From Shigella phage Sf12, in the sequence record MF158039: a stretch of 47,647 nucleotides of DNA; one strand, written 5' to 3'. The first letter of the stretch is position 1; each line of letters starts with the position of its first letter. This document shows, in pieces, positions 5,205 through 46,019 of this stretch. The notes under the pieces were generated by a model. It saw only the letters and a program-made list of their open reading frames with translations. It ran no database searches and was not told the DNA's origin. Made by a program: the position numbers and the translations under genes.

Positions 5205-5250
5205 AATATACGCCATCTTTTGATTTCTGTTTTAGCAATTCGTGCTATTT
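5205..5250 (-). promoter_or_regulatory. Junction cassette copy: palindrome (5233..5247) and -10-like TATATT (complement of 5205..5210)
   Basis: ttagcaattcgtgctattt; stop codon of HNH gene lies in the palindrome. Confidence 0.55.
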
Positions 5251-5703
5251 ACCGTGTCTTTCTGTGAAGCAATGATTTGACTCATAGAAGCTGACTGCTA
5301 GCGCCTTTGCCTCATCAAAACTATCAAATGTTCTATGAATCCTGTGATTGTCCTTTTGCAATTGAACTGTGTATTTACCCTTAGCTTTATTGTAAGAAAC
5401 TCCTGTTTGTCCTGTTTTGTTATCTTTTCTCATCGCTGCGTTTTTGCAGTTTACCAGCCTATCTACACATCTTAAGTTTTCTATTCTGTTGTCGTGCTTT
5501 ATTCCATTCAGGTGATCTATCTCCATACCTTTAGTTATCTCACCATTGTGCATTTCCCATATAACTCGGTGGGCAAAAGTCATTTTGTGACCAACCTTTG
5601 TTCTTACGTAGCCCCTTCTGTCAATATACCCAGCCACTGAATTTGTTGTCTTCCTGATTAGATTGCCTTTGTCGTATATGTAGTGTTTATTCCAATCTTC
5701 CAC
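5245..5703 (-). CDS. HNH homing endonuclease (HNH plus AP2-like C-terminal domain)
   Basis: EIDHLNGIKHDNRIENLRCV motif; paralogous to four other copies in the window. Confidence 0.8.
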   Translation of the reverse strand: MEDWNKHYIYDKGNLIRKTTNSVAGYIDRRGYVRTKVGHKMTFAHRVIWEMHNGEITKGMEIDHLNGIKHDNRIENLRCVDRLVNCKNAAMRKDNKTGQTGVSYNKAKGKYTVQLQKDNHRIHRTFDSFDEAKALAVSFYESNHCFTERHGK

Positions 5704-7492: not shown

Positions 7493-7782
7493 TTCTTCGC
7501 ACCTTTCTTAAATATCTTCTTACCTTCCTCTCTATACATTGCAAGGCTTGGCGTTGCTGGAACTCTTACATACTTACGAGGTCGCTGATTCATATAACTA
7601 AACTTCCCATTGAAAACTACAGAGATGTCGTCGATATCAAAATACTTGCTTATCATCTTGATATCATCCTGTAATCCAGCCTCTCCGCAGTGCGCCCAGA
7701 CCTCAGCCCTTCCGGTTTTTAGTATCATAATCCTAACGATTTCTTTAAAAGGTACATAGCCACAGCCCAATCCGTGGAGCAT
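7489..7782 (-). CDS. Hypothetical protein, 97 aa
   Basis: ORF track; 4-bp overlap with downstream gene. Confidence 0.4.
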   Translation of the reverse strand: MLHGLGCGYVPFKEIVRIMILKTGRAEVWAHCGEAGLQDDIKMISKYFDIDDISVVFNGKFSYMNQRPRKYVRVPATPSLAMYREEGKKIFKKGAKK

Positions 7783-8140: not shown

Positions 8141-8367
8141 TATTGAATCTCCGCAAAAAGTTGAGGTGCATCTTCTTTAAACTCTTCAATATCACGTTGC
8201 ATCATATCTTCCCAATCATTTAAATCTGCGTGCATGTAACCTTCCTCAAAGCTCATATCTAAACAGCTAGCCATTTTTAATGGGTCTTGATTAAATCCTT
8301 TATCAACAAGTTTCTTTGCAGCTAAACCCTGGAACAGTTCCCATTTAGTTTCAAAAGTTAATTTCAT
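8140..8367 (-). CDS. Hypothetical acidic protein, 75 aa
   Basis: ORF track; 1-bp overlap with upstream gene. Confidence 0.4.
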   Translation of the reverse strand: MKLTFETKWELFQGLAAKKLVDKGFNQDPLKMASCLDMSFEEGYMHADLNDWEDMMQRDIEEFKEDAPQLFAEIQ

Positions 8368-8656: not shown

Positions 8657-9051
8657 GAAAGATAATCCTCAATTGCCAACTTAAACATTTCGAACCCATA
8701 GCAGATTGCCGCGTAACCTCCTGTTTCTGATACCTTTTCAAGAAACTCCTTTTGCTCATTTGAAACCTTGCTATCTGATTTTATTGCTCGCTTAAGCTCT
8801 ATTGCGGCAAAGCCATTAGGCCCAATCAGAAGGATATCTGACACGCCTTTGATAACCCCCTCTTGCTTATCCTTCATAGCAGTACCAATAGACTTCAACC
8901 CCTCATTCTTCACGTGCCATGCGAATATCTCTGGGTGATTATGGCGAACCCATGCGATTGAATTGGTTTGGTGAATGCACTCTTTACTTTTATCTTCTGA
9001 CTTCTTATCTAAGAATATTTTAACGCTCATTTTCTGCTCCGTGGTTTTCAT
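8638..9051 (-). CDS. VRR-NUC-like nuclease
   Basis: GVSDILLIGPNGFAAIELKR resembles the VRR-NUC G-x-P/S-D ... E-x-K core. Confidence 0.55.
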   Translation of the reverse strand: MKTTEQKMSVKIFLDKKSEDKSKECIHQTNSIAWVRHNHPEIFAWHVKNEGLKSIGTAMKDKQEGVIKGVSDILLIGPNGFAAIELKRAIKSDSKVSNEQKEFLEKVSETGGYAAICYGFEMFKLAIEDYLSNSTNC

Positions 9052-9550
9052 GGTACCCGATTTCTTTTTCTAAAGACTTCCTGGCTAACACTGCTGACTT
9101 CAAATCCACAAAGTAACCTATGTGCTTCTCCTTGCCGTTTATGTTTATGTAAGCTCTGAATTTCTGCTCTCTCTTGTTCCAGCTAACACCTGTAACCCCT
9201 GAAGTGTTGTCATTCCTTTTGCTTTGATTTTTTAAATTATCCTGCTTAGATACTAACCTTAGATTTTCAATCCTATTGTCATCTCTTATGTGGTTTATAT
9301 GGTCTATCTCCATTCCTTTAGGGATTTTGCCATTATAAATCTCCCATATTATCCTATGTGCAAGAAATGGTTTTTTATTTAAAATTATCTGAATGTATCC
9401 GATGTTTTTGGTTCCAGCCTCTTTGCCTGCATAGTTTCCATTCCATTGGGGCCTAACATCACCCCTCCATTTCCAAAACAACTTAAAATCATCACTTAAT
9501 GAAAAATAATCCAACCAATCAAAATTGCTTATTACTAATGACATCTTCAC
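9020..9550 (-). CDS. HNH homing endonuclease
   Basis: EIDHINHIRDDNRIENLRLV motif; overlaps both neighbours. Confidence 0.8.
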   Translation of the reverse strand: MKMSLVISNFDWLDYFSLSDDFKLFWKWRGDVRPQWNGNYAGKEAGTKNIGYIQIILNKKPFLAHRIIWEIYNGKIPKGMEIDHINHIRDDNRIENLRLVSKQDNLKNQSKRNDNTSGVTGVSWNKREQKFRAYININGKEKHIGYFVDLKSAVLARKSLEKEIGYHENHGAENER

Positions 9551-15608: not shown

Positions 15609-16570
15609 TTTTCGTATTTTGACATGTAGTATGAAGGAACCTGTAGCTCCATAGAGTCCTCAATCATGTTGTAGCCAGGCCAGCGGTCGTACTTCTTGCA
15701 CTGCTTGTATGTCGCCAGGGCTTCCATGTATTGACGCCGACCTAAGGCAATATGTGCATCTGATAGCGTGTAGCACATTGGTAAGTAGGGAGCCTTTTTT
15801 TCTTGAGCTAAAAGCCGAACTAAAACTTTACGTTTTTCGTTGAAAGCACGAACAAACAAATCTCTTTGCAAAGCCATTTTTAGCAGGTAACCATAATTGG
15901 CAGCTAGCCTACCAAACCCTTCAGGAGATGCGTCTGATGTCGTTTTAAAATCTGTAATTATGACCGTATCACCAACAACATCAACGTGGTCCAGCCTAAC
16001 CTTAACTCCGCACTCATTAATCTCTCCGAAGATTGATAGTTCCCTCTGAGCGGTTTCGCTGTTAACTATAGCGTTGTAAGCGGGAATGCCACACAACACC
16101 TCTCGCATCGCTTGTACGGTGTCAAAGTCCTTAGCTGATACAATCTCGCGGCCTTCGGCTTTAATCTCGCTAGATCGCTGGATATCCCACCATACGTTGA
16201 GTGATTCACCAGTCAGCGTCAGCATCTCCATCAATTCAGGGTAATCCTTGCCAGAAGTTCCCGTGATTCCCATCGCCTTAAGTCTTGCGGCTAATGCAGT
16301 CTTGCTTGTGATAAGGTCTTCAAACTCTTCCTGTGCTGGCTGTCGGTAATAAGTAGAATCGAATATGTCACTTTCCAAAATCATTGTATGTGCTGCGCTA
16401 CCAAATGAAAGCGCCCTGCTTTTCTCACTCTCCTGAAATCTAAATGCAGCAGGGCATGTTGAAAATATCTTAGCAAGACCGCTACCCGATACGTGATCAA
16501 CTTCTGAATGATAAGCATCATTTGTTAGCTCATCTCTCGTAAAGACCTTGAATTTCATTTTTCCCACCAT
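15593..16570 (-). CDS. PD-(D/E)XK recombination exonuclease (YqaJ/RecE-like)
   Basis: LDHVDVVGDTVIITDFKT D...D-x-K core; recombination-module context. Confidence 0.6.
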   Translation of the reverse strand: MVGKMKFKVFTRDELTNDAYHSEVDHVSGSGLAKIFSTCPAAFRFQESEKSRALSFGSAAHTMILESDIFDSTYYRQPAQEEFEDLITSKTALAARLKAMGITGTSGKDYPELMEMLTLTGESLNVWWDIQRSSEIKAEGREIVSAKDFDTVQAMREVLCGIPAYNAIVNSETAQRELSIFGEINECGVKVRLDHVDVVGDTVIITDFKTTSDASPEGFGRLAANYGYLLKMALQRDLFVRAFNEKRKVLVRLLAQEKKAPYLPMCYTLSDAHIALGRRQYMEALATYKQCKKYDRWPGYNMIEDSMELQVPSYYMSKYENSTNS

Positions 16571-17078
16571 GCTCTAATGTGAACTTGTTTTTCTTGTTGA
16601 ACTCTAAGCGAACCTTTATGGCCTCCTCCCTTGTATCGAACCTTCCTAGATTTACTGTCTTACCATTTAATCCGGCCCTTGCTATCCACTTGCTTCTATT
16701 TTTATCCCAACAAACACCACAAAAACCAGAAGTGTTATCATCCCTCATTTTTGAATTTCTATTGTTAACTGACTGAGTTACCACTCTAAGGTTTGATATC
16801 TTATTATCATCTCTAAATCCATTAACGTGGTCTATTTGATGCCCTTCTGGTATCTTTGATTTCAAAATCTCCCAAATAGCCCTATGAGCCATGTACTTCA
16901 CATTGTCAATTGTTATGTATATGTATCCTCTCTTCTCATTCTTAACGCCCGCCCTTTTATTTGCAAACCTTGAATTCCACATTTTACATGTCCTTGATGA
17001 TGGGAAATCTGATTCTGGTCTATTCTTCCATATCAGATAACCATCTTCATGGTATGTGAAGTATCTACTCCAATCCAT
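16530..17078 (-). CDS. HNH homing endonuclease
   Basis: QIDHVNGFRDDNKISNLRVV motif. Confidence 0.8.
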   Translation of the reverse strand: MDWSRYFTYHEDGYLIWKNRPESDFPSSRTCKMWNSRFANKRAGVKNEKRGYIYITIDNVKYMAHRAIWEILKSKIPEGHQIDHVNGFRDDNKISNLRVVTQSVNNRNSKMRDDNTSGFCGVCWDKNRSKWIARAGLNGKTVNLGRFDTREEAIKVRLEFNKKNKFTLEHGGKNEIQGLYER

Positions 17079-24774: not shown

Positions 24775-25522
24775 CCTCCGGTAAATCTTTATGCCTTACG
24801 ATTCGCACTGTCCGCTCACGATAGTAGTCGCCGTACAAATCAACCTTACTCATCTTACCATATAAATGGTGTAGGATTTTATTATCACCAATATAGATGG
24901 CAGCGTGGTTTGTCTTCTCGCTTTGAATCTGCATCATAATCATCGATCCAATTGGGATGTTATTACCGCGAACTAACTCGAACCCCTCTAACTCCCAATT
25001 GTCATCGTAGATATTGTCAGGGTATTCGTTCGTCCACCACTGATAATCAACGCGGTAGTCATTTAGTTTAACGCCGTGTAGCTTGTGAAATTCCATAACC
25101 AAATTCCAACAGTCGAAGCTGCCAAGACCCCATGGGCGACCAGCAAGCGGCATTTTTTCTGGCTGAATAATCCGTAAGTCCCCTTCAGGTATAGAAACAA
25201 TAACATAAGGCAGCTCGCACTCATTGCAGCTGCAAATATCAGCTGCGCTTGGCCTAGTAGTAGCACCATCACCAGTATGTGAATGTACAACATAAACAAC
25301 GTTTTCATTATCTGAAATCTCCATGAATTCTGATGGGTCAAGAATGAATGATTGCTCTGGTGTTTTGGATACGTTGGTAATCCTGTGATACTTCTGAGCC
25401 ATTCCCTTTTGAGTCACAACCCCGCAAGATTCTTGCGGGTAAACCTCGTTGGCATGTCGAAATATTTCGATTTTTACTTTAGGTGTTAGCATTTTATCTC
25501 CCATGATTCTCATGAAAACCAT
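24746..25522 (-). CDS. Tail tip protein (lambda gpK-like: JAMM/MPN plus NlpC/P60 domains)
   Basis: HSHT JAMM-like motif, Cys/His peptidase signature; position. Confidence 0.7.
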   Translation of the reverse strand: MVFMRIMGDKMLTPKVKIEIFRHANEVYPQESCGVVTQKGMAQKYHRITNVSKTPEQSFILDPSEFMEISDNENVVYVVHSHTGDGATTRPSAADICSCNECELPYVIVSIPEGDLRIIQPEKMPLAGRPWGLGSFDCWNLVMEFHKLHGVKLNDYRVDYQWWTNEYPDNIYDDNWELEGFELVRGNNIPIGSMIMMQIQSEKTNHAAIYIGDNKILHHLYGKMSKVDLYGDYYRERTVRIVRHKDLPEDAGYDPERD

Positions 25523-25971
25523 TTAACCTTCTGAATTCATCTACAGCAATTGATGCTGATTCAAATGATTCATGACTTCCTAAGCTGTATTTCTTCCCAT
25601 TGAAGACAACGCTTGCCCTGTAGTTATTTCTGTCCTTTCTAAATGTGACCCCACTTTCACCGGTTGTATTTCTCTTATTCATTTTCATGTTTTTTTTGAT
25701 TTTCAGAGTGACTAACAATCCTTAAATTTTCTACCCTATTGTCGGACCTCGAACCGTTTATGTGATCTATCTCCATACCTTCTGGTATATCACCGTTGTG
25801 CATTTCCCAAACAATCCTATGCACGTAATGATAACTTCCTTTAGCACCAACCCTCAAGTATCCTCCGCTACGCAAAGAACCCGCTAAAGATCCTATTACT
25901 ATATTTCTGTTTGTCTTCTTATTCCAGTAAAGCTTGCCATCTCTGTATTCAAAAATTTCATTCCAGTTCAT
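25494..25971 (-). pseudogene. HNH homing endonuclease split into two ORFs by a frameshift at a T8 homopolymer (25690..25697)
   Basis: ORF 25675..25971 carries the HNH motif EIDHINGSRSDNRVENLRIV; ORF 25494..25718 carries the C-terminal domain. Confidence 0.6.
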
Positions 25972-27529: not shown

Positions 27530-30271
27530 TTAACTGTAACCGCGCAAGAACTGGTAAGCAGTCCCGCCCTGCTGGAAGGACTGAGTAATCTCTTCCGCGA
27601 TGATAACCCTGATACCAGATTCTAACTGTTTAGCGTCATTACCGCCACCGCCGCCAAGACCTGTCTGAACGGTAACATTCACTCCACCAACGTTAACGTT
27701 GCTTCCACCAACAAGTCCACCAGTCGCATAACCAGGACCAGAACCAACCACTCCGCCGTTGGCGTATCCGCGCATCAACTTGTACAGGTTGTCTACACCA
27801 ATCCTTGACGTTGCCTCCTTCGTAAAGACAAATTCACCACGATGCACTGTACCAGCTGGCTCGTACTTACCACCGTTTCCAGTGTAACCACCTGAAGCGA
27901 AACCAAATGCGCTACCAATGGAGCCAATAGCACCACCGCTACCGCCAAAACTAGAGATGGTTGACTCAATCGCCTTAATCAAAAGTAGCTGCGTTGCAAT
28001 GCGTGCAATCTGCTTCAAAATCGACGCTGTAAACTCGCGGAAGTTAGCCTCTCCAGTTGTTACCAAGTTTGTAATCTGATCAGTCAAGCCATTAAAGGCA
28101 CTCGTTGCCAATTCAGCTCCAATCTGATTGAAATTTGCCAATTCATCAGCTGTCTCGGCGAATGCTGACCTAACGCCAGCCAGCCAGTTACCACGTAATG
28201 CATCTTCCTGATTGTAGAAATTCTGACGAGCCTGAAGTAGCGCCTGAAAGTCAGTATCGTCTACTGAGCCACCTCGATTAACTTGCTGCGCTGTTAATGC
28301 TGCAATTTCACGCTGCCTCTCCTGCTCCCTTCTTGAAAGTCCAGCTCCAAGTGAAAGCGCTTCAGTCTGGGCGTTAATCTGATTGGTCTTCCTGATGTTT
28401 TCATCAAGTAATTTGTTTGCAGCTTCCTGCTGCTGAATCTGGTCACCTAGAATCGCAGACTTCTCACGCTCTGCAAGAATGATATCTCTCTTGGCGAACA
28501 ATTCACGCTGCGCTGCATTTGCAGTGCCTGCGTTAATTCTTTCCTCGATAACTGCAAACCTCGCCTGTTCATCAATTAGCTGCTTGCGCTGCTGACTGAG
28601 AGTTCTTCCTACCAGTTCCTGATCTTTAAGTACCCTGAGTTGAGCCTCCAGTGCTATCACTCCAGCTTCCGCGTCCTGGGTTAAGTCTCTTTGTTGTCTT
28701 GGCTGCCTTTCTGTGGTCCTCCTCCCATTTCTTGGTTTGTTTGCTTCGGCTAGTTCCTCCTTCCTGATTTCAACAATCCTATTGGCTTGTCTAATTGCCT
28801 CGGCATTACCGCTCAGCCTAATCTTGTTTAGCTGGCTTTCCGCTTGCTGTAATGCTCTAGTCGCACCAGCAACTCTATCAGTAGCGAAGTACTCCTTGTC
28901 GATTGCTGCTACAGTCTCAGCTCTTTCCCTCGCACCTTCACGAAGTGCGTTGTTTAGATCCGTTGCTGTTATCGCTATATCATCAATTGATCGCTGAACC
29001 CTTGCGTTGTTACTGACCTGTGAGTTACCAAGCTGCTGTAAAACTCTAGTTAGAAAACCAACCTCTGTTGCTGCCTGCTTGTAGCTATCAGCAATCCCTG
29101 CGACTTGAGCTTTGTGTTCTGCAATCTTTGCGTTAACTGCGGTGAAGTTTGAAGCATCCTTATACTGATCAACAAGCTCCCTCGCCTCTTCATAGCTCAA
29201 ACCAACATCAATAAGAGCAAGTTCAGCTTCTAAAGCGCCATCTGTAGTTGATACGAATGCTTGTGCAATTGACTCAGCAGACTTGCCTGTCTCCTCCGCG
29301 AGATCAGCGACCAGCTGACCAAGCCTTGATGCGGAATCACCAGTCAGGCCAAGTGATTTCTGAACTGCTGCCGTTCCTTCTTCCAGCCTCTTTTGTGAGT
29401 TGAATATTGATACGCCTAGCGTAGTAAATGCAATTGCAAGAACACCAAGAGAAGCCGTTACAGGGTTAATGTAACTAAGTAAGAACCTAAATGTGTTAGC
29501 GACACCTCCGAAGCTATCCTTAATCTGACCACCCTGCTGTATTGCAATAAGCCAAAGTGGTATGCCGCCAGCGATTGATGTCCCGATGTCTGTAATCTGC
29601 GCCGGAAGTTGTGCAATGGCATTTTTATATTGACCAGCGCTTAACCCTGATTTCCTGAACGCCTCGGCTTGACGACCTAGCGCTTCTACGTTAGCGTTCG
29701 TCCTTTGAGAAATTGATTGAATCAATGGTGCCGCCTGATCTGAAACACCAAGCTGGGCCGCTCTAAGTTCAAGAAGTTCTGTAGTTGTCCTTCCAGCTGC
29801 TAGCTCTTGCTGCCTGAGCGACTCAATGAACCTTTGACCAGCAGAGGCAAGCTTTTCTTTCTCTCTTGAGGCAGCTAGTGAAGCCCTACCTTCCTCAGTC
29901 AATGCGGCAGCACTTCTACGCAGTCTATTTTCCTGAGTCTCAAGAACCTCCCCAAGCCTGAAGAACTGCTCATCAGGAACTACACCAGCGGCAAACGCCT
30001 TATCTAAACCCTCCGCAGCTACACGCAACTTCTGTAGTTTTGAAGCCGTTGGGTCAATCGTCTGACTAAGCCTCTGAAAGGCTATCTGCTGTTCCTGCGT
30101 TGCCCTTGCGGTATCTCTGGCTATTGTCCTGGCAACTTGCTCAGCGTTAACAAACTTATCAACACCAGATGCCGCCTGTTCATTGGCACGTTTAAATTCT
30201 TGCAGGGACTTTGTGCCCTGTTCAACTTGGCGAACGTCAACGCCAAGTGTGATACCTGCAAATTCTGCCAT
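27530..30271 (-). CDS. Tail tape measure protein (start refined to Met 30271)
   Basis: About 910 aa, Ala/Gln-rich coiled-coil, Gly-rich C-terminus; follows G/T chaperones. Confidence 0.8.
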   Translation of the reverse strand: MAEFAGITLGVDVRQVEQGTKSLQEFKRANEQAASGVDKFVNAEQVARTIARDTARATQEQQIAFQRLSQTIDPTASKLQKLRVAAEGLDKAFAAGVVPDEQFFRLGEVLETQENRLRRSAAALTEEGRASLAASREKEKLASAGQRFIESLRQQELAAGRTTTELLELRAAQLGVSDQAAPLIQSISQRTNANVEALGRQAEAFRKSGLSAGQYKNAIAQLPAQITDIGTSIAGGIPLWLIAIQQGGQIKDSFGGVANTFRFLLSYINPVTASLGVLAIAFTTLGVSIFNSQKRLEEGTAAVQKSLGLTGDSASRLGQLVADLAEETGKSAESIAQAFVSTTDGALEAELALIDVGLSYEEARELVDQYKDASNFTAVNAKIAEHKAQVAGIADSYKQAATEVGFLTRVLQQLGNSQVSNNARVQRSIDDIAITATDLNNALREGARERAETVAAIDKEYFATDRVAGATRALQQAESQLNKIRLSGNAEAIRQANRIVEIRKEELAEANKPRNGRRTTERQPRQQRDLTQDAEAGVIALEAQLRVLKDQELVGRTLSQQRKQLIDEQARFAVIEERINAGTANAAQRELFAKRDIILAEREKSAILGDQIQQQEAANKLLDENIRKTNQINAQTEALSLGAGLSRREQERQREIAALTAQQVNRGGSVDDTDFQALLQARQNFYNQEDALRGNWLAGVRSAFAETADELANFNQIGAELATSAFNGLTDQITNLVTTGEANFREFTASILKQIARIATQLLLIKAIESTISSFGGSGGAIGSIGSAFGFASGGYTGNGGKYEPAGTVHRGEFVFTKEATSRIGVDNLYKLMRGYANGGVVGSGPGYATGGLVGGSNVNVGGVNVTVQTGLGGGGGNDAKQLESGIRVIIAEEITQSFQQGGTAYQFLRGYS

Positions 30272-30305
30272 GTAACCTCCATAAAAAAACCTCCACAAAG
30301 GGAGG

Positions 30306-41085: not shown

Positions 41086-42654
41086 TTACTTGACTCCAGC
41101 TAGTCGCATTAAGCGGGCTCTTGGGTCGTCACTCAAGTTCAATTCACAGTTGATTGCCATCGTTGTTGTATCCACAATGTCATCATGAGGGTGTGAATCG
41201 TCCGCAGTGAACGCTGAGAACTCAGTTAACAGCGATGTAAGCCACGGTGCAGAGTCTGGCAGAACTACGTTACCAGCCTTAATCTGTGGCAATGCGCTCA
41301 TCACTCTGGTTAGTTTATCCGTATCTGGAACAAATGGTTCGATAGGTGTTCTCATGGTTCGACCTGCTGACTGGATAAGGCCGATACCAGATGCCTTTTT
41401 CTCGATAATAACCTTGCGTAAGATACCATCCGTTTTACTGGTTGCCCTATGCTTGCTCTCAAAATCCAGCAGAGTTTGCTCAAGCTCTGGAGCCTCCCAT
41501 TTCCCCCTCACCATATCCAGAAGGTAGAGCTTGTTATCCTTACGCCCCCAGAGCTGGAATACTGAGTAGTCGCTATAACTCTTCGTAGTCATGGCAGTAT
41601 CAGCCGTAATGAAGCGGTAGTCATACTTGACTGGCGGCCTGTTGTTCTCATCAAGCCTTACGAACCAATCTACGTTAATCAGGTTTCCACCCAGAGCTAC
41701 TGGCTCCTGCTGGTACTGGCTTAGGAATGTATACGGGTCTGAGTCCCACATCGCCATCAGGTCGTGCACAGATTCCTTTTGTGGAAAGTAGCTATAGTAT
41801 TTCACGCCGTCACGCTCAACTGATTCGGATGACAGGACATCCTTCTCGAACTGCTCACGAATCCAGTCAGGAAGCTCATTCGCATAGTCTTCAGTAACCA
41901 GCGCTGGTATCTTTACCACATCAAAGTCGATACCCATACCGCCAGAAGTCATGAACCACGTTGAATCCTGCGTATGTAGCCTTTGCTGGATTGATATAAT
42001 TGGCGTTGATTTACCCTTGACGCTACTTGCCCTACGCGAGCGGATGGTGTTTTTTAGCAACATGTGAACAGACTCGCGCTTCACCTTACTAAACATATCA
42101 TCAGCTTTATCGATATCGTCCAGCATCAGGCATCCGCTATAGGTGTCCGTGATATACCCACCACGACTGCCCGTAATCTGAGAGCCAATTGCCTTGGATA
42201 TGGATTCAAACTTAACCTTCCCAGAATCATCTAGCACCTGAATCTCATCATCCTTACAGGTTCCAAACTTGCACGGGAAAAGACTTTGAAACTCAACTGA
42301 CTTGATAAGGTCACGCACTCGCTTTGAGTTACGCTTCACAAGGCTATCAGAGAACGAGAGGTTAAGGTTCCTTACTTTCTTCAGCTTAAGCATCGAATAA
42401 ACCGGAAAGTGGATCGATGTAATCTCGGTTTTTCCGGCCCCCGGCGAAATATTTATAATCGTATCCTTCCTCTCGCCAGAAACTATCTCATCAATGATTC
42501 TGCATAGGTATTTATGGTGCCAGTTAGGAATGTATCGCTCTGATTGAGATAGCTGGAACCATACACGAAGGAATGCCTCGAAACTGTGAGTGGATAGTGC
42601 CTTAACTGCCAGCTTTTCAGCTGGCGTCATCTCTTCCCAAACTAATGTCTTCAT
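41086..42654 (-). CDS. Terminase large subunit
   Basis: Walker A-like SPGAGKT near N-terminus; acidic nuclease-like C-terminal half; overlaps TerS by 4 bp. Confidence 0.8.
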   Translation of the reverse strand: MKTLVWEEMTPAEKLAVKALSTHSFEAFLRVWFQLSQSERYIPNWHHKYLCRIIDEIVSGERKDTIINISPGAGKTEITSIHFPVYSMLKLKKVRNLNLSFSDSLVKRNSKRVRDLIKSVEFQSLFPCKFGTCKDDEIQVLDDSGKVKFESISKAIGSQITGSRGGYITDTYSGCLMLDDIDKADDMFSKVKRESVHMLLKNTIRSRRASSVKGKSTPIISIQQRLHTQDSTWFMTSGGMGIDFDVVKIPALVTEDYANELPDWIREQFEKDVLSSESVERDGVKYYSYFPQKESVHDLMAMWDSDPYTFLSQYQQEPVALGGNLINVDWFVRLDENNRPPVKYDYRFITADTAMTTKSYSDYSVFQLWGRKDNKLYLLDMVRGKWEAPELEQTLLDFESKHRATSKTDGILRKVIIEKKASGIGLIQSAGRTMRTPIEPFVPDTDKLTRVMSALPQIKAGNVVLPDSAPWLTSLLTEFSAFTADDSHPHDDIVDTTTMAINCELNLSDDPRARLMRLAGVK

Positions 42655-43166
42655 AGTTTATCCATTACCGAGGCCAGAGCTGCCTTCATTGCTTCCTCAT
42701 CGTTTACTACTGCATTAGAAGCGTTGTTGATGTTAACCTCTTGCGGCTTGTCGATGCCAAGGTCTTTGCCAATCAGTCCAGGGTTGACGATATTGTTAAC
42801 GCCAAGCTGATACTTCTGCTCAAAGATGACTGAATCCACGAACTCCATAACCTCATCGAACCCAGGTGATGAACGCCATTTGGCGATTGCATTGGGGCCT
42901 ACGCCGCAGAACAACTGGAATCCAGTTATCGTAAATACTCGCGGCTTGTGCACAAGGTTCTCAGTGACTACGCCCCGAAAGCTAGCGGTTTCAATTGCTT
43001 TAATTACTTGCTCTTCAGCCCAGCTGAAATACCTGACGGCCATATCGAAGACCTGTTCTGGCGTATATCTATGGTTAATCTTCAGGTTGGCAATGTCGCC
43101 ATACTTCTTATTGTAAAGTTCTTTGAAGTTTCCAATCTTCTGGTGAATCTTTTTCTCTTCTGACAT
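42651..43166 (-). CDS. Terminase small subunit (putative)
   Basis: 171 aa immediately upstream of and overlapping the large subunit. Confidence 0.5.
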   Translation of the reverse strand: MSEEKKIHQKIGNFKELYNKKYGDIANLKINHRYTPEQVFDMAVRYFSWAEEQVIKAIETASFRGVVTENLVHKPRVFTITGFQLFCGVGPNAIAKWRSSPGFDEVMEFVDSVIFEQKYQLGVNNIVNPGLIGKDLGIDKPQEVNINNASNAVVNDEEAMKAALASVMDKL

Positions 43167-43213
43167 GTGATATTCCTCCTGTTTTAAAAGTCATTGTATC
43201 ATGAGTACGCACG

Positions 43214-43238
43214 AAAAAAAGCCCTCACGAGGAGGGCC
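43214..43238 (-). terminator. Rho-independent terminator
   Basis: ggccctcctcgtgagggc then ttttttt on minus strand. Confidence 0.6.
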
Positions 43239-43265
43239 AAGTACTACATTGCGAGATTACCAATC

Positions 43266-43451
43266 TCAAACGAGGGATATTTTATCAACGCTGACTTTGT
43301 GAACTGTCAGGTCAATCTTAAATGCTGCCTTTGCGGCTGCAACTGCTTCTTCAGGGCTACTGGCAAGGAACCTACCTTCGTATGATTGCTGGCAAGATTT
43401 GCATTGTCGACCCATTAGGCGGGAAGTTAAACGTACTTCGTAGTTATTCAC
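43266..43451 (-). CDS. Hypothetical Cys-containing small protein, 61 aa
   Basis: ORF track. Confidence 0.4.
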   Translation of the reverse strand: MNNYEVRLTSRLMGRQCKSCQQSYEGRFLASSPEEAVAAAKAAFKIDLTVHKVSVDKISLV

Positions 43452-43467
43452 CAGGATGCTCCATGAT

Positions 43468-43543
43468 TGGTGTTCCGCGCTGGACTCGAACCAGCAACTG
43501 AGACTTAGGAGGTCTCTGCGTTATCCTGTTACGCCAGCAGAAC
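43468..43543 (-). tRNA. tRNA-Arg (anticodon CCU, decodes AGG)
   Basis: Hand-folded cloverleaf: acceptor GTTCTGC/GCGGAAC, D stem GCGT/ACGC with GG in loop, anticodon stem GAGAC/GTCTC loop CTCCTAA, T arm GCTGG-TTCGAGT-CCAGC, encoded CCA. Confidence 0.85.
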
Positions 43544-43795
43544 TAGAATAGGTGCCGGTTACGGAATCCGGCGAGCTTTCACAATGCTCCGCGTTTGCGA
43601 CTTATACTTTGCTTTTGGCGATGCGCTATTGCCTCGTATCTTTACCCAGCCCGGCTATCGGCTTGCATCTCCGCGATGCGCGTTACGGTCATTGCCGCCT
43701 ACGTGGTTAATACTAACCACATTTAACATTTGAGTCAAGCCATGACGACGAAATAAATCCATGTCAGTATGCCCGCCAGGAACCAGATTGATAAC

Positions 43796-44035
43796 TCAGT
43801 CATAAAGTGACTCTCCAGTTTCGGTTTTACCACATCTTCCCGCCAGGTAACCTGCAACCCAAACGAAACGCATCTTCTCGATGATTGCGCTGATCGGGCT
43901 ATGGAACTCACAGATAACTGCCTTCATGATGTCATTATCCTGCTTCTGCTTTGCTGTAAGTTTATCAACCGCCTCGTTTAGCTTCTTGGCCTGGGCGCGT
44001 ACTGCGTTGAATTGTGATTGGGTAAGTCCGAACAT
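43796..44035 (-). CDS. Hypothetical protein, 79 aa
   Basis: ORF track. Confidence 0.4.
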   Translation of the reverse strand: MFGLTQSQFNAVRAQAKKLNEAVDKLTAKQKQDNDIMKAVICEFHSPISAIIEKMRFVWVAGYLAGRCGKTETGESLYD

Positions 44036-44303
44036 TTTAAATTGCCTTATCGACTAAAGTAATACTGCACAGTCCCGCCAAGGACGGCCTGCTGAGCGTA
44101 CGCTGATTCAGAACTGTCGTGGACTCTTCTGTGCATAACGCTGTTAAACTTTCCAGTGTAGTATGTGTGAATCCAGATCATCTCTTGCTCCACATGTGAA
44201 TTGCTAGCTTACCGTCTCCAGCCTCAGAATCGTTTGCTGCCCATAAGTTGCCAGTGAATACGTAAATCTTCATTTCTTCTCCTCGTTTCGTCTTGATGTG
44301 GTA

Positions 44304-44350
44304 ATCATATCAACTACCCATTCTGGCGTATTAGCAATTAGTGCTATTTG
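44304..44350 (-). promoter_or_regulatory. Junction cassette copy: palindrome (44332..44346), -10-like TATGAT (complement of 44304..44309); no long ORF downstream
   Basis: attagcaattagtgctatttg; leader catcaagacgaaacgaggagaagaaATG precedes only a 22-codon ORF. Confidence 0.5.
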
Positions 44351-44820
44351 CCGTGATTATCATGAAATACGTATTTTAAGTTCGCTTCCTGCCTTGCCTT
44401 AATTGCCTCATTCATGTCGGAATAAGTTCCCAGGTGAATATCCTTTCCGGAGACTTTAATCTTTGCGGCCCACTTACCTGAAGCTTTGTGCCAGCCTACT
44501 CCAATGAAACCACTTAAGCTAGATGGTCTTATTGATTGGTTCCTCTGATTTCCTGCGTTTGTAACAAGCCTTAGGTTTTCAATCCTGTTATCTTTCCTAT
44601 TATGGTTTATGTGATCAATCATCATACCTTCGGGCTTTTCCCTACCATGCATGAACCAAACTATATTGTGCACAAGTGCGGTTCCGTCTATGAAATGTCA
44701 CTGCAGATAACCTTTAGAATCAGGACTTCCAGTAACTCGTCCATTTGACAATCTGGTTATCGTTCCATCTTTATTATAGCTAAAGTGGCATTTTATATAC
44801 TCTTTATTTCTCACTACCAT
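44344..44820 (-). pseudogene. HNH homing endonuclease interrupted by an in-frame TGA (complement of 44698..44700)
   Basis: Hand translation MVVRNKEY...SKGYLQ*HFIDGTALVHNIVWFMHG...IDHINHNRKDNRIENLRLV aligns across the stop with intact paralogs. Confidence 0.6.
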
Positions 44821-45894: not shown

Positions 45895-46019
45895 TTTCCA
45901 AGTACCCCTTTGGTTTTTAGGTTTTTGCGGTAGAATTGCATAATGTGCTGATTGTAATAATTACTTGATGGATACTCTTTCATCTTTTTACCCTCTCCTC
46001 CCGTTTGGTTGATAGGGTA

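Follow-up and report, generated by a model that had tools for sequence, protein, structure and literature searches.

Phages T4 and T5 carry sets of transfer RNA (tRNA) genes and laboratory rare-codon plasmids carry argU or argW, and in these systems tRNA is supplied for a codon that is frequent in the genes being expressed but rare in the host. Such codon compensation, modelled by Bailly-Bechet et al. (2007; cited in PMC10264068), is the usual explanation of phage tRNAs. Among T1-like phages, an arginyl-tRNA 'recognizing the rare codon AGG' was described for Rogue1 and JK06 in 2012 (Kropinski et al., PMC3496638), a 2014 paper lists the gene in four more relatives (PMC4070988), and the UCU counterpart in SU57 was suggested to help decode AGA (PMC7718038). 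The tRNA gene and its reading of a rare codon are therefore already known from close relatives. Here we analyzed the corresponding gene in Shigella phage Sf12 (record MF158039), a T1-like siphophage of the family Drexlerviridae, subfamily Rogunavirinae; the window is its complete genome of 47,647 bases. The analysis adds quantitative codon evidence beyond the genome papers, together with the anatomy of the slot in which the tRNA lies. We put a probability of about 0.7 on the reading that this is a functional phage tRNA-Arg(CCU) which supplements scarce host AGG-reading tRNA, chiefly for the late tail and homing-endonuclease genes.

The window was ~90% identical to Shigella phage Sd1 and 87-88% identical to Rogue1, JK06 and phiKP26. 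The tRNA-Arg(CCU) genes of the Rogunavirinae (Rogue1, JK06, AHP24/AHS24/AHP42/AKS96, phiEB49, Sd1 and others) were orthologous to that of Sf12, 96-99% identical with 1-3 point differences, and had the same anticodon. They occupied the same place upstream of the terminase gene terS, with the same leader and the same downstream open reading frame (ORF); a tRNA-Trp in Sd1 and a Val-like tRNA in phiEB49 were additional, and Sf12 had neither of them nor a remnant. In the Rtp/IME253/CEB_EC3a group (Braunvirinae, with SU57), with terL ~80% identical, the slot was occupied by a tRNA-Arg(UCU) that followed a leader of the same type. The UCU tRNA had its acceptor stem and T arm in common with the CCU tRNA, to which it was 76-78% identical in records L014-L016 (e.g. 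L014 8767-8844) and 69% identical in the L013 copy. Its anticodon arm was identical to that of E. coli argU, its D arm resembled argU, and most copies were 77-78 nucleotides (nt) long by an extra base. E. coli argW shared with the phage tRNA the anticodon, the 7-nt anticodon loop, the arginyl-tRNA synthetase identity nucleotides and a GGAUA D-loop motif, but was only 70% identical overall and differed in the sequence of all four stems.

The gene was located as follows:

43468-43543, minus strand: tRNA-Arg, anticodon CCU, reading AGG; 76 nt including CCA; supported by ARAGORN, Rfam, the minimum free energy (MFE) fold, covariation and orthologues

A first-pass annotation, made from the letters of the DNA, had placed a tRNA-Arg(CCU) at these positions, and both the coordinates and the anticodon proved right: ARAGORN accepted the fold and returned tRNA-Arg (cct), and Rfam agreed. 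The strand, which had been missing, is minus. The description of the gene as a clean cloverleaf was borne out by a match to Rfam RF00005 (43471-43543, minus strand; 58.1 bits versus a gathering score of 29, E 4.5e-10, model positions 1-71/71) and by the MFE structure of the tRNA alone, which was a cloverleaf of -26.9 kcal/mol making up 63% of the ensemble, with stems of 7, 4, 5 and 5 bp and an anticodon loop of 7 nt. The 3' CCA was genome-encoded (plus-strand tgg at 43468-43470). Direct reading of the tRNA (GUUCUGCUGGCGUAACAGGAUAACGCAGAGACCUCCUAAGUCUCAGUUGCUGGUUCGAGUCCAGCGCGGAACACCA) identified U8, A14, G18 G19, U33, A37 (a purine at 37), G53 T54 T55 C56 and A58. The identity elements used by E. 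coli arginyl-tRNA synthetase are A20, C35, U36 or G36, and A73 or G73. The phage tRNA had A20 (D loop AACAGGAUA, after G18 G19), C35, U36 and A73, with an anticodon of C34 C35 U36; the discriminator in related phage tRNAs was A73 or G73. ARAGORN found exactly one tRNA in the 47,647 bases, in line with the earlier description of a single tRNA. Its position next to the terminase genes also held, with terS and terL downstream on the same strand and the tRNA 3' end 301 nt upstream of the terS start; a 61-amino-acid (aa) ORF and a terminator-like hairpin intervened.

Homologues of the tRNA were identified in 39 phage records, all Drexlerviridae (93-99% identical in 35, and 79% in the Opt-79 group), and many of these records annotate the gene as tRNA-Arg. 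When 13 homologues were aligned, 98.5% of the cells in stems were paired and 11 of the 21 pairs showed double-sided changes. None of 500 shuffles matched these values, and the signal was lost when partner columns were slid. Pair 49-65, for example, was G49-C65 in Sf12, G49-U65 in Rogue1 and A49-U65 in phiKP26, and pair 27-43 was G27-C43 in Sf12 versus A27-U43 in IMM-001. The phage tRNA-Arg(CCU) is a real gene under purifying selection. A search of IMG/VR for the tRNA scaffold, using a T-arm/acceptor pattern, returned only the Drexlerviridae tRNAs already found and generic T arms of multi-tRNA phages. No remnant of a second tRNA upstream, where Sd1 has its tRNA-Trp, was detected by a permissive Rfam scan of 43150-44100 or by ARAGORN, and the alignment revealed that the extra tRNA is cleanly absent from Sf12. 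ARAGORN also reported, in Klebsiella phage Opt-79 (L088 791-883), a 93-nt 'tRNA-???' with a two-base anticodon right after a diverged tRNA-Arg(CCU); this may be a degenerate second tRNA.

Comparison with E. coli K-12 gave 70% identity to argW (CCU) and 62% to argU (UCU), and blastn of the tRNA against 5,426 complete E. coli genomes gave zero matches. The 70% identity and the absence of matches rule out a recent capture of host argW. tRNA genes often coincide in part with phage attachment sites, and prophages integrate at argW in E. coli; in K-12, argW directly adjoins CPS-53, a cryptic prophage, and its integrase. On this ground the gene could be what is left of an integration site (attP) or of an earlier temperate lifestyle. 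The phage tRNA is, however, full length and has no block in common with argW, and megablast of the 2-kb tRNA region against the same 5,426 genomes gave zero matches, so that it was not seen as a prophage. No integrase was annotated in the collinear Sd1, Rogue1, T1 and TLS records, the ORFs of the window having been scanned in part, and the family is described as virulent (PMC7718038). With zero prophage copies in 5,426 E. coli genomes the attP or prophage reading is effectively refuted, and we regard its probability as negligible.

Codon usage was analyzed on genes called by a greedy longest-ORF, non-overlap heuristic, which included at least one spurious ORF (43194-43385, plus strand); the main codon results were repeated at length cut-offs of 40 to 200 aa and on ortholog-only sites. 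The host baseline was one 50-kb region of E. coli K-12 put through the same analysis, the host of the Sf12 window being taken from its relatives only. AGG was the top Arg codon of the phage, accounting for 197 of 732 Arg codons (13.5-14.3 per 1000 codons, 27-28% of Arg). In the K-12 sample it reached 2.2-2.8 per 1000 and 4-5% of Arg codons, which agrees with the earlier statement that AGG is rare in many enterobacterial hosts; PMC3496638 also calls the codon rare. Among all codons AGG showed the largest phage-minus-host difference in relative synonymous codon usage (1.67 versus 0.27), the largest per-thousand ratio (5.1-fold) and the largest window-minus-T1 difference. In T1 and TLS, which have no tRNA, AGG stood at ~5 per 1000 and 10% of Arg codons. 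Relative to position-specific base composition, the observed/expected ratio of AGG was 1.17 in the window versus 0.40 in T1, so that T1 avoids the codon and the window does not. Across 33 ortholog pairs with 251 conserved Arg sites, the window had AGG at 57 of these sites and T1 at 18. In-frame tandem AGG-AGG occurred five times in the called ORFs (four without the spurious ORF) and was absent from T1 and TLS. No clustering of AGG at gene starts was observed (13.3 versus 14.0 per 1000).

The use of AGG was uneven along the genome. The late block of the window was taken as 19186-43166 on the minus strand, with the terminase genes at its start, and the AGG share of Arg codons was compared between late and other genes:

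Window, Arg(CCU): late 34%, other 21% (Fisher P = 6e-5)
Sd1, Arg(CCU) and Trp: late 33%, other 15% (Fisher P = 9e-9)
T1, no tRNA: late 11%, other 10% (Fisher P = 0.9)
TLS, no tRNA: late 11%, other 9% (Fisher P = 0.54)

When the homing endonucleases were removed, the share in the window was 33% in late genes versus 16% elsewhere. The first-pass annotation had suggested translational tuning of late genes, and this comparison supports it, with a late enrichment in the window that is missing in T1 and TLS. The most extreme shift to AGG/AGA of any gene was found in the tape-measure gene (27530-30298, minus strand), where 31 AGG and 17 AGA made up 48 of the 67 Arg codons; its T1 homologue had 12 AGG or AGA codons out of 39. 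The J-like tip protein contained 21 AGG and the GDSL-type esterase 15. The most AGG-dense genes were five HNH_3(+AP2) homing-endonuclease genes, with 41 AGG per 1000 codons and 52% of their Arg codons, and these were also the most AGA-dense:

16530-17078, minus strand: HNH_3(+AP2) gene
9020-9550, minus strand: HNH_3(+AP2) gene
44344-44673, minus strand: HNH_3(+AP2) gene
5245-5703, minus strand: HNH_3(+AP2) gene
25675-25971 and 25494-25718, minus strand: HNH_3(+AP2) gene

The last of these was split into overlapping ORFs, an HNH part and an AP2 part, and is frameshifted or decaying.

We also compared anticodon and codon usage across the Drexlerviridae, using the same six orthologous late genes with ~90 Arg codons per set:

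Phages with a CCU tRNA: AGG 13-20, AGA 4-11
Phages with a UCU tRNA: AGG 4-9, AGA 10-19
Phages without the tRNA (T1, TLS): AGG 4-5, AGA 7-8

Within this single family of phages, anticodon and codon usage have shifted in step, with the UCU-tRNA genomes favouring AGA whereas Sf12 favours AGG. IMM-001, an independent CCU carrier outside the Rogunavirinae, was AGG-rich, with AGG at 16 per 1000 and 37% of Arg. Compared with the tRNA batteries of T4 and T5, Sf12 carries in a small 47.6-kb genome a single tRNA, which matches the single codon that is most mismatched to the host.

The tRNA lies within a transcription unit made up of the following elements, which is followed by the terminase genes:

43710-43738, minus strand: sigma-70-like promoter, TTGACT-17 nt-TAGTAT; consensus scan; ~165 nt upstream of the tRNA 5' end; putative function
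43544-43709, minus strand: untranslated structured leader of ~165 nt between promoter and tRNA; alignments
43266-43451, minus strand: small conserved ORF; starts at GTG (61 aa; GGAG ribosome-binding site) or at the ATG at 43415 (49 aa)
43213-43238, minus strand: intrinsic-terminator-like hairpin, GGCCCTCC-loop-GAGGGC then T7; scan; ends the tRNA unit just before terS
43193-43201, minus strand: extended -10-like motif TGaTACAAT; direct reading; between the terminator and the terS ribosome-binding site
42651-43166, minus strand: terS; ORF and annotated homologues in relatives
41086-42654, minus strand: terL; ORF and annotated homologues in relatives

Each of these elements from the promoter to the terS start was conserved in relatives. 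The promoter position, with near-consensus hexamers, was kept in the Rogunavirinae, the Rtp group, T1 and TLS, and the SU57 record annotates a promoter at the equivalent place. Because the promoter resembles an ordinary promoter of the host polymerase, expression of the tRNA would be early and continuing. Within the leader, a 5' domain (43632-43706) and a variable middle stretch were followed by two hairpins, Y at 43573-43589 and Z at 43554-43572 (loop AUUCCGUAA, ..CGUAA). The 5' domain, its first ~75 nt, was near-invariant among phages that are ~88% identical elsewhere. Hairpins Y and Z showed compensatory changes at 3 pairs in the Rogunavirus group and at 10 of 24 pairs in the Rtp group, as judged by eye within groups, the cross-group MAFFT alignment being structurally inconsistent. 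A search of the leader against Rfam at E<=10 gave chance-level matches only (Trp_leader on the terminator, mir-344 and Yar_2). The leader was conserved in both major Drexlerviridae clades and, without an Rfam family, may be a cis-acting RNA.

Downstream of the tRNA, the GGAG ribosome-binding site and the 61-aa ORF come 16 nt on. The ORF was homologous to T1 ST56 and TLS gp27 (tblastn), is annotated in Rogue1 and Sd1, had zero Pfam matches, and is probably co-transcribed with the tRNA. It contained a single CxxC motif and a conserved AGG codon (AAG in phiEB49). The stem of the terminator-like hairpin was constant and its loop variable among relatives, and the T1 record annotates an equivalent terminator at 8322-8344. 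The extended -10-like motif reads TGgTACAAT in relatives, with a similar TGgTAAAAT in T1, and a strong AGGAGG site stands between the motif and the terS start codon. As read from these letters, the motif could conceivably be a separate promoter for the packaging and morphogenesis genes.

In T1 and TLS, the same promoter, leader type and final hairpin run straight into the next small ORF with no tRNA between them. The equivalent of hairpin Z was GCCGC-AGACCCGUAA-GCGGC in T1 and GCGGG-AGCCGUAA-CCCGC in TLS. As T1 and TLS have the unit without the tRNA, the tRNA is an insertion into an older transcription unit. The Braunvirinae and Rogunavirinae together form one of two major Drexlerviridae clades in the BASEL study, with the Tunavirinae and Tempevirinae forming the other (PMC8594841). 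A slot filled only in the Braunvirinae/Rogunavirinae clade is consistent with this split.

We propose that the tRNA was inserted into the pre-existing unit in the Braunvirinae/Rogunavirinae branch, and that, with the tRNA present, AGG may have escaped the negative selection which T1 and TLS still display. Host RNA polymerase would start at the conserved sigma-70-type promoter (43738-43710) and produce a transcript of structured leader, tRNA and small ORF that would end at the terminator directly ahead of terS. The tRNA would be cut free by RNase P and 3' processing of the host, host arginyl-tRNA synthetase would charge it, as all of the E. coli identity elements A20, C35, U36 and A73 are there, and the extra tRNA would let ribosomes read AGG at a useful rate. 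The data show the gene with its structure and conservation, the codon statistics and the synteny; promoter use, processing, charging, expression timing and the causal direction are what we infer in this mechanism.

The slot runs from hairpin Z to the first small ORF (window 43468-43553; Sd1 L010 8633-8787; phiEB49 L012 3198-3351; T1 L006 ~7740-7755), and its contents varied among relatives. It was empty in T1 and TLS and elsewhere held Arg-CCU, Arg-UCU, Trp and Arg in Sd1, or Arg and an odd Val(AAC) in phiEB49. The T arm and acceptor of the Val(AAC) tRNA resemble those of the Arg tRNA, which suggests a diverged duplicate. A further record (L018 6915-7270) had an Asp and Ser tRNA pair upstream of terL, at a position similar to the slot. 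The tRNA tree also conflicted with the genome tree. The CCU tRNAs of IMM-001 and BUCT-XGG-1 were 94-95% identical while their terL genes were only 78% and 52% identical, respectively; because tRNA identity far exceeds terL identity, the tRNA cassette has moved between phages. BUCT-XGG-1 (an Escherichia phage, Nouzillyvirus; L089 701-777, L093), with a tRNA 94% identical and proteins ~50-68% identical, had the sole copy in which an acceptor pair was broken (U5-U68) and the D arm had gained a base, which suggests a recent horizontal transfer or a decaying copy.

These data bear on the possibility that the tRNA is a mobile cassette of little selective value, a hitchhiker in a recombination-prone slot that was perhaps moved with homing endonucleases, with AGG a permitted neutral drift. 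The varying occupants of the slot and the conflicting trees fit such a history, as do an HNH gene ~800 bp upstream of the tRNA, the BUCT-XGG-1 tRNA without AGG enrichment, and the ratio of 1.17, by which AGG in the window is only about at base-composition expectation. The strong purifying selection, the compensatory stem changes and an anticodon loop that is invariant over ~35 genomes argue against it, and the only structurally impaired copy sits in an AGG-poor genome, that of BUCT-XGG-1. The enrichment specific to late genes is hard to obtain by uniform drift, and a genome in which AGG makes up 27% of Arg codons very likely needs the tRNA, wherever it came from. We therefore consider a cassette of little value unlikely.

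Another explanation is anti-defence or replenishment, in which the phage copy replaces host tRNA-Arg destroyed by anticodon nucleases or host shut-off and codon preference is irrelevant. Colicin D-type toxins cut tRNA-Arg, and there are other tRNases of defence; we know of no defence nuclease specific for tRNA-Arg(CCU), which counts against this explanation. Colicin D is listed among the E. coli tRNases, and the anti-defence hypothesis is established for other phage tRNAs (van den Berg et al. 2023, PMC10264068). The family does contain genes of tRNA conflict, namely polynucleotide kinase in T1 and TLS and an stp-like PrrC activator in TLS, and tblastn gave a weak stp-like match in the window (45915-45965, minus strand; 17 aa at 53%, with E 2e-4 from a very small search space). 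As the body of the phage tRNA is only 70% identical to argW, a body-reading nuclease could miss it. The anticodon loop CUCCUAA and the 38/39 junction (G39) are nevertheless the same as in argW, unlike the loop-mutated tRNAs behind the anti-defence model. No polynucleotide kinase/ligase was found in the window by tblastn with the T1 and TLS polynucleotide kinases, and the relatives without a tRNA have the same species as host. Codon compensation agrees closely with the statistics, AGG ranking first and the anticodon tracking the codon, and we judge an anti-defence role quite improbable. The annotation of the TLS 'stp' peptide makes it an activator of PrrC, a tRNA-Lys nuclease of the host.

Several observations weigh against supplementation of AGG-reading tRNA. 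T1 and TLS, which lack tRNA genes, infect E. coli, and in BUCT-XGG-1 AGG reached only 5 per 1000 and 11% of Arg despite the CCU tRNA. AGG was scarce in the genes for the protease/scaffold (1 codon), portal (1), major capsid (2) and tail tube (0), which use CGT and CGC; as the most abundant structural proteins avoid AGG, the highest translational demand is independent of the tRNA. The HNH homing endonucleases, which are mobile and possibly foreign, supplied 32 of the 197 AGG codons. Since the tRNA bearers are essentially one clade, the correlation between codon and tRNA rests on few independent events. It is compatible with demand selecting the tRNA or with the tRNA permitting AGG to drift, and cannot tell these apart.

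A more far-reaching reading combines three parts: the tRNA and the AGG-rich late genes as a translational gate, the UCU/CCU/empty slot as a swap site driving AGA/AGG recoding, and the leader as an undescribed cis-acting RNA. We hold this combination to be rather doubtful. If the gate existed, the tail, tape-measure and homing-endonuclease genes would be poorly translatable until the phage tRNA accumulates; the tRNA would come from a host-type promoter and be amplified by replication, and codon choice would help set the timing or stoichiometry of late genes. A swap site would offer a compact natural system for codon-anticodon coevolution, and the leader might shield the untranslated transcript from Rho or aid read-through into the terminator-rich late operon. 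The codon evidence makes this small phage family a convenient test case in the debate between codon compensation and anti-defence, and it could matter when T1-like phages are selected or engineered for hosts whose tRNA pools differ. A minor lead, separate from this, is the conserved structured leader.

Some minor features of the region were also noted. A literature search on T1 antitermination found nothing relevant. A boxA-like UGCUCAUUAA was present in the Rtp-type leader and absent from the Sf12 leader; identity as a boxA-like or put-like antiterminator is not claimed. The T1 record annotates many terminators across the late operon. Upstream of the leader, a conserved ORF for a 22-aa hydrophobic peptide (MTELSIWFLAGILTWIYFVVMA) was identified at 43735-43803 on the minus strand, its stop codon overlapping the -35 of the tRNA promoter, and the Rtp group had a similar peptide (MSELTIWFIAGLITWGYFLIA) at the matching place.

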